Part shown: in pieces, positions 1 to 14,520 of the stretch
Layout: each line of letters begins with the position of its first letter
Position numbering within the stretch: position 1 is the first letter of the stretch
Sequence record: PQ561396
Length of the DNA: 14,626 nucleotides
Direction: 5' to 3' (one strand)
Source: Escherichia phage Ec1-ASingh
The notes under the pieces: generated by a model
The model's input: the letters and a program-made list of their open reading frames with translations, nothing else
Database searches by the model: none
What the model was told of the DNA's origin: nothing
Program-made: the position numbers and the translations under genes

Positions 1-179
1 GCCAAACCATTGTGCTGCAAGAGGCGCGCCAAATACGGCGCAGGTGAAGCCAGTTGCGATAAAGCAGAAGCCGTCGATAGGACCAGGAATAACGGACTTG
101 TGCTGTCGTAGTCCGATTACCCCACCGGCTAGTGCGGCAGCCAGAAGCCAGCCTGTCACTGTTTCGGTAAATTTATCCA
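1..179 (-). CDS. partial CDS (3' end runs off the window): small hydrophobic, probably membrane protein
   Basis: Minus-strand frame open from 179 to the window edge. First start after the in-frame stop (203-201) is TTG at 179-177, preceded by GGAGGA (191-186). Translation (M)DKFTETVTGWLLAAALAGGVIGLRQHKSVIPGPIDGFCFIATGFTCAVFGAPLAAQWFG has two hydrophobic stretches. Not in the ORF track. Confidence 0.3.
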
Positions 180-239
180 AGATGAATCCTCCATGTGCGT
201 ATTAAGTATGCAGTAACTGGAGGATACCACGGGTAGGAA

Positions 240-680
240 TTATCCTAATAGTTGTTTGGTAATAATCTTGCCGCCGGTGTTGGCATCGAACTTAGACGCA
301 ACAGCTACGCCGCCATGTGCTGAATAACCACATTCCATAGCCGCCAGTGCATAAGGAGAGCCGGACCCAACGGCGGCAAAACCGTCTGCAATAGGGATAA
401 CCGAACTAAGTGCGCAATCCCACGATTTATAGAACGCGACTTTATACAACTTTTCTGTGTCTTTCACGAACACCAGGGCTTCGAAATCGAAGTCATAGTG
501 CTTTGCCAGAAGAATACCAGGGCAATCGATAAGCATATCCCCGATCCCTGCATCGCCAGCCACCCCAATAACAACAAATTCGTTCTCGTATATCTTTGTG
601 TCTGTGTTGTAACAGTCACTCCCACACACAACACGGGTATCACAAGCCATTGTCTTTCCGTCAAACGCGATAGTAGTCAT
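240..680 (-). CDS. Ntn-hydrolase, proteasome beta-subunit / HslV-like peptidase homologue (146 aa)
   Basis: ORF track. N-terminus MTTIAFDG puts Thr at position 2, the mature nucleophile position in proteasome beta/HslV. ACDTRVV resembles the GADTR segment, a conserved Lys follows (DTKIY), and GSGSPYALAA matches the GSGS motif. ATGA overlap with the upstream gene at 677-680. Confidence 0.55.
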   Translation of the reverse strand: MTTIAFDGKTMACDTRVVCGSDCYNTDTKIYENEFVVIGVAGDAGIGDMLIDCPGILLAKHYDFDFEALVFVKDTEKLYKVAFYKSWDCALSSVIPIADGFAAVGSGSPYALAAMECGYSAHGGVAVASKFDANTGGKIITKQLLG

Positions 681-970
681 TTATGTCTCCAGATGTATTG
701 CCGTCTCTGTGGTTTCGTCGGAATATCATCATACCCCAGCGATTTCCAGTAATTAAATAGCCGATTAGCGATTGCTGCGCGTTCCTTTGTCTTGAACTCA
801 CCGAGATTCACGGCATTCCCGTTCTGGAATCCACAGGCACGCACAGCTTTGCGTCTGGCCTGAATCTCAGGGTACAGCGCGTTACGGCGGCGCTTGTGTA
901 TTCGTGTATTCGCTCTCGGCGACAGCGGCGCAAGGCCGCTTCGTTTCAGGATGTCAGTTGCGAGGCTCAT
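677..970 (-). CDS. hypothetical protein (97 aa, basic)
   Basis: ORF track frame 677..1015, start moved to ATG at 970-968, which overlaps the TGA stop (969-967) of the upstream gene (ATGA coupling). Begins MSLATDILKRSG. Confidence 0.5.
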   Translation of the reverse strand: MSLATDILKRSGLAPLSPRANTRIHKRRRNALYPEIQARRKAVRACGFQNGNAVNLGEFKTKERAAIANRLFNYWKSLGYDDIPTKPQRRQYIWRHK

Positions 971-2110: not shown

Positions 2111-2150
2111 CAAAAATGAGAAAAATGATACGCTGCTACACAGCAGCGTA
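2111..2150 (-). terminator. rho-independent terminator for the upstream leftward operon
   Basis: 9-bp stem 2129-2137 / 2142-2150 with loop ACAC. On the minus strand it is followed by a U-rich tract (revcomp of 2111-2128 = TCATTTTTCTCATTTTTG). Confidence 0.6.
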
Positions 2151-3109: not shown

Positions 3110-3143
3110 AACCCTCACTCCTCTGTCTCGTTTCGATAAGTGA

Positions 3144-3172
3144 ATAGTATCCTATTATGTTGGGGTGTGCAA
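3144..3172 (-). promoter_or_regulatory. sigma70-like promoter (minus strand) with embedded operator GAATAG-TATC-CTATTA (3142-3157)
   Basis: Minus strand: TTGCAC (3172-3167), 17-nt spacer, TACTAT (3149-3144). Identical architecture to the promoter at 2007-2035. An extra GAATAG half-site at 3175-3180. Confidence 0.5.
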
Positions 3173-3214
3173 GAGAATAGTTACGCTGCCGTTGTGATTC
3201 TTTCGTTTCTTTAA

Positions 3215-3269
3215 AGAGTACGCAACGCAGTGGGTGGGCGTCAGCCCACCCCAGCGGAGTGAAGTACTC
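3215..3269. other. nested inverted repeats in a 430-bp non-coding region: perfect 8-bp GC hairpin inside a 7-bp outer inverted repeat
   Basis: Inner GGGTGGGC (3232-3239), loop GTCA, GCCCACCC (3244-3251). Outer AGAGTAC (3215-3221) and GTACTCT (3263-3269). No U-tract on either strand, so not a canonical intrinsic terminator. Confidence 0.5.
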
Positions 3270-3528
3270 TCTACCCTGCTTACGGCAACTATAGAAACTT
3301 TTAATTATCAGTGACTTGGGTATTTAGGTAGGATTAACAATAGACTTTGGCCCTTCCGAAAGCGCCAGCGGAACTACACTCAAGTGCTAAAGCACGCGTT
3401 GCGTTCCCTGCCGCTCCGCGGTCGCTTGCTCATACTTCACAAGCTCAGGTGGAGCTTATCATATTTTTAAGTAAAAGTCAATATCAGTAGCATCTTTTGT
3501 ATCTTAGTAACTTTGTGTGATGTTTTGG

Positions 3529-3557
3529 TTGCTTTTACATTCCCGCTATCCTATACT
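3529..3557 (+). promoter_or_regulatory. candidate sigma70 promoter for the rightward AlpA-like gene; no operator palindrome
   Basis: TTGCTT (3529-3534), 17-nt spacer, TATACT (3552-3557). AGGAG at 3576-3580 and ATG at 3589 follow. Confidence 0.35.
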
Positions 3558-3588
3558 CGTTTTCACCAAACAAACAGGAGATATAAAA

Positions 3589-3771
3589 ATGCAGCATTAC
3601 ATGACACAGAATGAAGTAGCTGAACGTATCGGGGTGACACGTCAGACAATTAATAACTGGTTGCGCAGCGGTAAATTCCCAGATTGCTGTATTAAGGTTA
3701 TGGGTCGCCGTTTACCTGGGACATTTGACCGTAATAAAGTTGAGGCGTGGATTAAGGAGAACGTGAAATGA
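3589..3771 (+). CDS. AlpA/excisionase-like HTH DNA-binding regulator (60 aa)
   Basis: ORF track frame 3517..3771, start moved to ATG 3589 (AGGAG 8 nt upstream). MTQNEVAERIGVTRQTINNWLRSGKFP matches the AlpA/Xis-type helix-turn-helix pattern. Confidence 0.7.
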   Translation: MQHYMTQNEVAERIGVTRQTINNWLRSGKFPDCCIKVMGRRLPGTFDRNKVEAWIKENVK

Positions 3772-12617: not shown

Positions 12618-14038
12618 GTAAGTTTCAAAGGCGCGAATACCAGAAGCTCATGACTTCGTTCATGTTGCAACACCCGCGCTGTAATATCTGGTGCGGTATG
12701 GGCGGCGGCAAGACCTCGTCGACGTTGTGGGTTCTCAATCGACTGTTCCGTAATGGGCAACTTAATGACGACGACCGAGTGTTAATTCTGGCTCCTTTAC
12801 GTGTTGCGTCAGGTACGTGGCCCGCGGAACAGGCACGTTGGAACTTCCCTTGTCTGCGCGTCGTAGATGCGACCGGTTCGGAGAAGCGCCGCATCGCGGC
12901 GCTGGAGTCTGACGCTAACGTGGTGTGCACGAACTACGAAGTTATCGAGTGGCTGATTGACTACTACGGCAAAGACGACTGGCCTTTTACTGTTATCGTT
13001 GCCGATGAGAGTACGAAGCTAAAATCTTTCCGCAGCCGTTCAGGCGGTAGTAAGAGAGCAAAGGCGCTTAGTAAAGTGGCGTTCGGTAAGGTTAAGCGTT
13101 TCATTAACCTTACGGGAACACCGTCACCGAACGGCCTCAAAGACTTATGGGGGCAGAACTGGTTTATCGACGCTGGCGAGCGCCTGGGGTCTTCATATAC
13201 AGCATTCACCGACCGCTGGTTTAACTCGGTACAGAAAGGCAAATCGGCTATGGCGCGCGAATACCACGCCCGCCCTGGCGCGGATAATGAAATTCACCAG
13301 AAGATGAAGGACATTAGTCTCACGATTGACGCTGCCGAGTGGTTCGGTTGTGAAGCGCCGATTATCGTCCCTGTTGAAATCGACCTGCCGAAGAAAGCGC
13401 GTCAGGCGTACCTAGATATGGAGGAAAAATTATTCGCGGAACTGGAAAGCGGCGAAGTTGAAGCGGCTAACGCAGCGGCGAAGACATCGAAGTGTCTGCA
13501 GATCGCATCCGGTGCCGTGTATGTGTCAGGGCCGGACGGAGAAGCAACCAAAGACTGGGAGAAAGTTCACGACACGAAACTGGATGCGCTGGAGTCCATT
13601 GTGGAGGAGTTACAGGGCGCACCGTTACTGGTGGCCTATCAGTTCAAGCACGAACTGGAGCGCATCCTTAAGCGATTCCCGCAGGCGCAGGCGTTTGCCA
13701 AAGGCGCTAAGGGTAATAAGCAGATGGAAGCGTGGAACCGTGGTGAAATACCTATGCTCCTGCTACACCCAGCCTCCGCAGGCCACGGGCTGTCGCTACA
13801 ACACGGCGGGCACCACATGGCCTTTATGAGTCAGGGGTGGAACCTAGAACATTATCTGCAGGTTATCGAGCGTATAGGTCCGGTAAGGCAGATGCAGTCC
13901 GGATACAAACGGTCTGTATTCATTTATCAAATAATAGCCCGAGATACTCTTGATGAAGTTGTCGCCGCGCGTACAGACGAGAAAAGGTCTGTACAGGACG
14001 AACTACTTAATTATATGAAGAGAAGGAGTAAGAAATGA
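12614..14038 (+). CDS. SNF2-family (DEAD-like) helicase / ATPase (474 aa)
   Basis: ORF track. Motif I GMGGGKT, Ia LILAPLRV, II VIVADESTKLK, III INLTGTP, V HPASAGHGLSLQ, VI QVIERIGPVRQ. Immediately follows the VRR-NUC gene, a common pairing. Confidence 0.8.
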   Translation: MSKFQRREYQKLMTSFMLQHPRCNIWCGMGGGKTSSTLWVLNRLFRNGQLNDDDRVLILAPLRVASGTWPAEQARWNFPCLRVVDATGSEKRRIAALESDANVVCTNYEVIEWLIDYYGKDDWPFTVIVADESTKLKSFRSRSGGSKRAKALSKVAFGKVKRFINLTGTPSPNGLKDLWGQNWFIDAGERLGSSYTAFTDRWFNSVQKGKSAMAREYHARPGADNEIHQKMKDISLTIDAAEWFGCEAPIIVPVEIDLPKKARQAYLDMEEKLFAELESGEVEAANAAAKTSKCLQIASGAVYVSGPDGEATKDWEKVHDTKLDALESIVEELQGAPLLVAYQFKHELERILKRFPQAQAFAKGAKGNKQMEAWNRGEIPMLLLHPASAGHGLSLQHGGHHMAFMSQGWNLEHYLQVIERIGPVRQMQSGYKRSVFIYQIIARDTLDEVVAARTDEKRSVQDELLNYMKRRSKK

Positions 14039-14520
14039 GCAAGGTATCTTACGACCCTGAAACCGGTATTTTCACATGGGTTGAAACAAAACGTAGGGGT
14101 TTTATTGGAAAGAAAGCAGGATGTTTTTGTCCGCGGGACGGGTACATTCGTATCCGAATAAACGGAAAACTAGAACTAGCACATCGGTTAGCATGGGATA
14201 TCTGCAATCCCGATAACCCACTTACACCACAGGAACAGATAGACCACATCAATCATATTCGAACTGATAACCGAATATGCAACCTACGGAAAGTTACCAA
14301 CACTGAAAATAGCCGCAACGCATCAATAGGGGTAAACAATACTAGTGGCGCTCTTGGTGTATGGCGGGAAAAGAGAAGAAACAAATGGGTAGCAGAGATA
14401 AAGGTAGACAGACGAAAAATACATCTAGGCCAGTTTGATGATTTTGACGAAGCGGTTGCCGCGCGTAAAGCCGCGGAAGCTGCTTACGGATTTCATGAAA
14501 ACCACGGAGAAACTGCGTGA
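14035..14520 (+). CDS. freestanding HNH endonuclease with C-terminal AP2 DNA-binding domain, homing-endonuclease-like (161 aa)
   Basis: ORF track. ATGA overlap with the helicase gene. HNH core LAHRLAW...IDHINHIRTDNRICNLRKVTNTENSRN. AP2-like GVWREKRRNKWVAEIKVDRRKIHLGQFDDFDEAVAARKAAEAAY. Confidence 0.8.
   Translation: MSKVSYDPETGIFTWVETKRRGFIGKKAGCFCPRDGYIRIRINGKLELAHRLAWDICNPDNPLTPQEQIDHINHIRTDNRICNLRKVTNTENSRNASIGVNNTSGALGVWREKRRNKWVAEIKVDRRKIHLGQFDDFDEAVAARKAAEAAYGFHENHGETA

Follow-up and report, generated by a model that had tools for sequence, protein, structure and literature searches.

A proteasome-like Ntn hydrolase of the PPH family encoded upstream of the holin genes in an Escherichia Kagunavirus

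Results

Gene organization

We analysed a 14,626-nucleotide stretch of DNA from Escherichia phage Ec1-ASingh (sequence record PQ561396), hereafter the window. The source phage is a Kagunavirus (Guernseyvirinae, siphovirus of E. coli); the first 3.2 kb of the window match Escherichia phage vB_VIPECOMC04 at 92%, and ∼270 further records match as well. The gene under study, called PPH after the family to which we assign its product below, lies among the following features.

1..180, minus strand: 5' part of a class II holin gene (TTG start at 178-180 with GGAGG upstream; phrog_2359, E 1.4e-16)
240..680, minus strand: PPH coding sequence, a proteasome-beta/HslV-like N-terminal-threonine hydrolase
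677..970, minus strand: 97-aa gene of phrog_9632 (PHROG E 1e-55), upstream of PPH, function unassigned
687..690, minus strand: putative Shine-Dalgarno GGAG, 6 nt 5' of the PPH ATG, as read from the sequence
2129..2150, minus strand: terminator-like hairpin with a 9-bp stem and a T-run, from a consensus scan of the sequence

The open reading frame at 240..680 (minus strand) runs from an ATG start to a TAA stop at 240-242 and encodes a 146-aa product that begins MTTIAFDGKTMACDTR... The ATG is the first start codon past the preceding in-frame stop, and since there is no in-frame start codon further upstream, a propeptide is excluded. It overlaps the TGA stop of the preceding 97-aa gene (ATGA), an arrangement by which the two genes are predicted to be translationally coupled. 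All sequence motifs named in the original prediction could be located (M1-T2-T3 at codons 680-672, D14-T15-R16, K29 and G105-S106-G107-S108), and the product is indeed shorter than HslV (146 versus 176 aa). PPH matches PHROG 1040 ('peptidase HslV family') at E 1.1e-34, and comparison with an orthologue of 86% identity yields a dN/dS of 0.17, showing that the gene is under purifying selection. The PHROG 1040 match, the homologues and the dN/dS value together exclude a chance open reading frame. The GC content of PPH (47.4%) equals that of the neighbouring genes, and thus there is no sign of a recent foreign origin.

The gene had been taken for the distal member of its gene train, which is not borne out because the holin gene begins 59 nt downstream on the same strand, where it is cut by the window end. 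Annotations of orthologous loci have the order holin-holin-endolysin downstream. The arginine-rich 97-aa product encoded upstream is 33% identical to gp57 of Jerseyvirus SETP13, both proteins begin MSLATDILK, and the position of the gene is conserved across Guernseyvirinae. PPH accordingly occupies the same place in Kagunavirus and Jerseyvirus (SETP13), between this upstream gene (97-121 aa, phrog_9632/4947) and the holin-holin-endolysin genes. Across phage groups, no conserved PPH neighbour emerged from the annotated phage records and the few metagenome contigs that we compared, and Pfam and PHROG searches with the nine small upstream genes returned only families of 'unknown function'. PADLOC returned no match. 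The Jerseyvirus homologue of the 97-aa gene gave a weak match to AP2 (E 0.039, well below threshold).

The hairpin at 2129..2150 is followed by an AT-rich non-coding spacer of ∼150 nt (1976-2128) within the train of small minus-strand genes. Hairpin and spacer, both upstream of PPH, suggest two transcription units: the putative terminator probably splits the train, placing PPH in the distal unit together with the lysis genes. Judged from these sequence signals, PPH may share a transcript with the lysis genes instead of being 'early', as had been supposed. A scan for sigma-70 promoters and terminators gave no match in the 59 nt that separate PPH from the holin gene, and over the scanned region as a whole shuffled sequence yielded promoter and terminator counts that were at least as high. 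The corresponding train of small genes in Kagunavirus Schulenburg has an annotated terminator (L012:2801-2823), with no positional equivalence implied. Further along the window, the minus-strand small-gene train and a plus-strand HTH_17/excisionase-like gene (3517-3771) diverge from the intergenic region at 3119-3516. This region has weak sigma-70-like matches on either strand and probably controls both arms. A side observation concerns 14035-14520 (plus strand), where a homing-endonuclease-like gene with HNH_3 and AP2 domains directly follows the SNF2 helicase gene. Phage vB_VIPECOMC04 carries several HNH endonuclease genes elsewhere, for example flanking its DNA polymerase gene.

Fold and family assignment

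Searches of Pfam and the PDB with the single PPH sequence remained below significance. Pfam PF00227 scored 19.3 bits, less than the gathering score of 22.4, and no significant matches were returned from the PDB. We attribute the PF00227 miss to sequence divergence and two deletions, not to a different fold; 37 of 61 family members match PF00227 at E<=0.01. A profile of 61 diverse family members (about 35% identity to the query) matched proteasome β8/β5 subunits in the PDB (E 6e-12 to 2e-11), HslV (2e-11) and BPH (7e-10). The alignments span the whole length for HslV and for β5/β8, where they take in Asp166, Ser169 and Gly170, and the BPH match is limited to profile positions 56-138. Alignment of the PPH family with E. 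coli HslV by hhalign, using an HslV sequence verified against PDB entries 5ji3 and 1e94, gave a probability of 97.4%.

An AlphaFold2 model calculated from the family alignment (pLDDT 92.1, pTM 0.86) contains the α-β-β-α sandwich of proteasome-like Ntn hydrolases. When the model was compared with the PDB using Foldseek, BPH, HslV and β subunits were recovered with TM-scores of 0.70-0.75 (normalised to the query). The proposed proteasome-beta/HslV Ntn-hydrolase fold is thus confirmed by profile search, structure prediction and fold comparison, and the PPH product is a proteasome-like Ntn hydrolase (MEROPS T1 / PF00227 superfamily). We are highly confident of its membership in the PPH family.

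Several closer identities were considered and rejected. PPH is not HslV/ClpQ proper, as judged by its scores against the NCBIfam HslV equivalogs (TIGR03692, 15.1 bits versus a cutoff of 157.75; NF003964, 14.5 versus 137), its length of 146 aa, the missing helix H2 and the lack of an HslU gene in the window and in the annotation of vB_VIPECOMC04. The failure of the equivalog models implies that the label 'peptidase HslV family', found in GenBank and PHROG, holds at the superfamily level only. PPH is not a BPH, having a deletion where BPH has an acidic pore loop, and it lacks the hallmark of connectases, a two-helix insertion between S3 and S4 without H1 or H2. Within the superfamily PPH is nearest to BPH and HslV, not to Anbu or WPH, which places it with the group I proteins.

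Active site

The residues expected to form the active site were located by the profile and hhalign alignments, and their conservation was counted across 134 aligned, diverse relatives sharing only about 35% identity.

675..677, minus strand: Thr2 codon, predicted N-terminal nucleophile after Met1 removal, equivalent to proteasome Thr1 (Thr in 131/134, Ser in 3/134)
639..641, minus strand: Asp14 codon, equivalent to proteasome Asp17 (Asp in 132/134)
594..596, minus strand: Lys29 codon, equivalent to proteasome Lys33 and aligned to HslV Lys33 (Lys in 134/134)
555..557, minus strand: Gly42 codon, equivalent to the oxyanion-hole Gly47 (Gly in 134/134)
360..368, minus strand: Gly105-Ser106-Gly107 codons (GSG motif), with Ser106 equivalent to proteasome Ser129
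273..287, minus strand: Asp132-Ala-Asn-Thr135-Gly136 codons, equivalent to proteasome Asp166, Ser169 and Gly170

Thr2 aligns with Thr1 of both β5/β8 and HslV, and an MTT start is present in 121 of the 146 distant relatives listed (P0124-P0269). The GSG motif, part of a GSGS segment (G105-S108), aligns with the GSG of β5 and HslV; both glycines are invariant (134/134 each) and Ser106 is retained in 121/134 sequences, with Thr in 10. In the family profile comparison with PDB sequences, Asp132-Gly136 aligns with RDSYSGG of β8. Asp132 is kept in 127/134 relatives, position 135 is Thr or Ser in 121/134 (90%; Thr alone 73%) and Gly136 is found in 124/134. The proteasome catalytic set thus forms the best-conserved columns of the alignment. 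Loss of the catalytic Thr, Lys or Gly, which the original prediction had named as a finding that would count against it, is not seen, and the set is complete once the sequences are aligned.

A shortened helical region

Two deletions relative to HslV, ∼25 residues after H1 and ∼10 residues between H3 and H4, account for the short length of PPH. The gap of ∼25 residues after H1 is also seen in comparison with β5. It maps to one further feature.

501..548, minus strand: residues 45-60, a short H1 and a vestigial turn replacing H2 (from DSSP on the model and the alignments)

DSSP assigns helix H44-52 to the PPH model, then H54-58, which is a turn of 5 residues in place of a second long helix, and then a strand at 66-72. 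The block of residues 45-60 has the lowest pLDDT of the model (76). Among 121 close orthologues, sequence variation clusters at residues 48-60 (window 501-539, minus strand), and the mean entropy is 1.36 bits for residues 51-60 versus 0.7 or less elsewhere. The equivalent region in HslV and BPH lines the pore and the apical face (PMC8665760). Residues 48-60 of PPH may form a specificity surface, or may simply be a relaxed loop.

The ATPase partner

A phage ATPase partner for PPH is absent from the sequences covered here. We scanned the ten larger open reading frames of the plus-strand region and found no HslU/Clp-type ATPase in the window; the only NTPases among them are a helicase-primase (AAA_25) and the SNF2 helicase. 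The complete genome of vB_VIPECOMC04 has no Clp, HslU or Lon-type unfoldase among its 76 annotated genes. The earlier remark that no HslU-like ATPase is encoded nearby therefore holds for the window and for the annotation of this related genome.

Presence and absence among related phages

In the Kagunaviruses fPoEco01 and Schulenburg, sequences corresponding to window 1-250 and 679-1161 align at 91-95% identity, and 7 nt (L011:747-753 and L012:751-757, respectively) take the place of window 251-678. The junction keeps the last PPH codons (...TTATTAGGATAA) as a scar, which suggests that an ancestral gene was deleted. The upstream neighbour occurs in 478 phage records (356 Salmonella, 110 Escherichia or Kagunavirus), whereas tblastn finds PPH homologues in 299 (258 Salmonella, 32 Escherichia or Kagunavirus). 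PPH is thus an accessory gene in this phage lineage; it is ancestral at a fixed position and was lost by clean deletion in many Kagunaviruses. Its clean absence from close relatives implies that PPH is dispensable for lytic growth, which in turn speaks against its being essential for morphogenesis or lysis.

A described family

The PPH family has been reported by Fuchs, Alva and Lupas (Bioinformatics 2021; PMC8665760) as one of 22 new proteasome homologues, with 219 nr70 sequences and WP_042125023.1 as representative. The authors describe PPH as phage-encoded proteins of about 140 aa without helix H2, which among family members is absent only in PPH and RPC, and without an AAA+ partner; no AAA+ co-occurrence was found for these families, and PPH was grouped with HslV and BPH in group I (PMC8665760). 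The published features, namely a length of ∼140 aa, a Met-Thr start without propeptide, the triad and the oxyanion Gly, are all present here, and our gene likewise has no H2, no C-terminal extension and no insertions. Published members come from tailed phages of Proteobacteria or their prophages, and a Kagunavirus of E. coli fits this distribution. We could detect no difference between the published PPH and the present gene, which typifies a family already described and annotated. The biology had been called unusual in the original prediction, a view that does not stand given the 2021 description and the existing annotation of orthologues.

PPH is annotated in hundreds of phage genomes, and orthologues in GenBank are labelled 'peptidase HslV family protein', 'protease' or 'ATP-dependent protease'. 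A HMMER search over 1.8 billion cluster representatives returned 1268 clusters (50% identity) at E<=1e-3, and the family appears much larger now than the 219 nr70 sequences of 2021. The relatives listed are mostly 135-155 aa long and align from residue 1. With the family consensus as query we obtained 531 phage records, some of whose partial matches may belong to related families, and 371 of them match over >=80% of the query length; jumbo phages and large myoviruses are represented, with hosts in Vibrio, Pseudomonas, Caulobacter, Rhizobium, Erwinia and Aeromonas. A transcriptome paper on a Kagunavirus (PMC12645636) does not mention the PPH gene in its text or supplements. As a discovery the locus adds one more member to a known family; new here are the accessory status with its deletion scar, the position ahead of the holin genes and the variation hot spot at residues 48-60.

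Discussion

The 20S β5/β8 subunits are the best profile matches of the PPH family (E 6e-12); 20S β subunits in general have ∼200 aa, propeptides, H2 and often H5 and need α rings, all of which are missing from PPH. HslV/ClpQ (PDB 1e94, 1m4y, 6kui) has 176 aa with H1 and H2 and works with HslU. The E. coli protein also starts with MTT, but reads C-I-Y-T-N at the position at which PPH has retained D-x-x-(S/T)-G-G, as in the proteasome. BPH (PDB 5ovs, 5ovu) is about 185-200 aa long and tetradecameric, and contains H1, H2 and an elongated acidic pore loop; the PPH deletion falls exactly on this pore-loop region, and BPH is bacterial and chromosomal, not viral. BPH is also a partnerless double ring that binds epoxomicin covalently. 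Connectase (PDB 6zw0, 8jtu) shares with PPH a proteasome-like Ntn fold in which the first helix pair is reduced, and provides a precedent for a non-degradative, partner-free function.

On balance we lean towards PPH being an ATP-independent threonine peptidase that assembles into a homo-oligomer and acts on peptides, unfolded proteins or specific proteins. Host methionine aminopeptidase would remove Met1 and expose Thr2 as the nucleophile. This enzyme permits Thr as the second residue, and E. coli HslV is processed likewise. Asp14 and Lys29 would then complete the catalytic triad, Gly42 would form the oxyanion hole, and Ser106, Asp132 and Thr135 would support the active site. Cleavage by the PPH homo-oligomer, whether of peptides, of unfolded proteins or of one specific target, would take place in the infected cell and, as has been proposed for BPH, would need no dedicated unfoldase. 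We infer Met1 removal, peptidase activity, oligomeric state, ATP independence and substrate, the activity from conservation alone, since our literature search found no experimental (biochemical or genetic) work on any PPH or phage HslV-like protein. A point against the mechanism is that loss of H2 and the shorter link between H3 and H4 might prevent ring assembly; isolated proteasome subunits are inactive (PMC8665760).

It is fairly unlikely, if conceivable, that PPH is a non-degradative Ntn enzyme, such as a sequence-specific processing protease, a transpeptidase/ligase or an amidohydrolase whose substrate would be a small molecule or a peptide-like modification, and that it functions possibly as a monomer or small oligomer; the membership of connectase, a ligase, in the same superfamily speaks for such chemistry. 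We consider it quite unlikely that PPH hijacks a host unfoldase, replacing or mixing with host HslV for ATP-dependent degradation through E. coli HslU (ClpY). HslV is among the closest relatives of PPH in sequence and fold, the MTT start is common to both, no phage-encoded ATPase is at hand to serve PPH, and the phage's E. coli and Salmonella hosts encode HslUV. Yet the TIGR03692 score of PPH is only 15.1 bits against the cutoff of 157.75, and ∼25 residues including helix H2 are gone from the face that is built by H1 and H2. In addition, Lys28 of HslV, which reportedly binds the C-terminal carboxylate of HslU, aligns with Asn25 of PPH in a non-conserved column, and the published survey found no AAA+ co-occurrence for these families (PMC8665760).

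Gene position could be taken to indicate a role in morphogenesis or lysis, with PPH acting as a prohead or virion maturation protease or processing the neighbouring holin, antiholin, endolysin or spanin: PPH lies directly upstream of the holin-holin-endolysin genes in Kagunavirus and Jerseyvirus, and no prohead protease is annotated in vB_VIPECOMC04. We nevertheless find this very improbable, since close relatives have the same lysis cassette and lack the PPH gene entirely, a related genome encodes a separate scaffolding protein, and PPH resides away from lysis or head genes in other phages. It is hardly credible that PPH has lost its catalytic function and persists as a scaffold, or that the gene is a remnant in decay. 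The gene is dispensable in nature and the single sequence falls below the Pfam threshold, but the catalytic positions are intact and near-invariant in 134 relatives, the dN/dS is 0.17 and the model is confident. Near-invariance and purifying selection likewise make the 'catalytically altered scaffold', put forward in the original prediction as an alternative to a standalone peptidase, an unlikely option.

A more specific proposal combines a self-sufficient viral threonine protease with the accessory status of the gene. PPH would serve in host takeover or counter-defence by cutting a particular host protein, for example a defence or stress-response factor, with the variable residues 48-60 setting the specificity. 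We regard this as unlikely. Should it be true, the presence or absence of PPH in Kagunaviruses would reflect host-range adaptation, and PPH would be the first viral proteasome homologue to be given a function, carried out by a minimal active unit.

PPH is the smallest proteasome-like protein with a full active site, and its assembly and substrates would reveal the minimal needs of proteasome-type catalysis and the benefit to the phage. Kagunaviruses with 91-95% identical flanks in which PPH is present or absent amount to a natural experiment, in which a phenotype is easy to test.

Other gene arrangements were seen around distant homologues. The metagenomic PPH P0124 (39% identical) is encoded two genes downstream of a dGTP_diPhyd_N (PF18909) gene, and the 64-aa gene in between overlaps both; this order is found on three independent contigs (L003:787-1806, L004:2581-3600 and L005:559-1578). 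Longer HslV-family proteins of 267 and 230 aa, possibly of the 'RPC' type with a C-terminal extension, are encoded by Vibrio phage 1.187.O (L009:2426-4304) and Escherichia phage nieznany (L010:1931-3917), respectively. In these two different large myoviruses the gene lies one small gene downstream of a PhoH-like ATPase gene and near a glutaredoxin gene. The pairing could reflect a shared module or an association with the ATPase, neither of which is relevant to the Kagunavirus gene.
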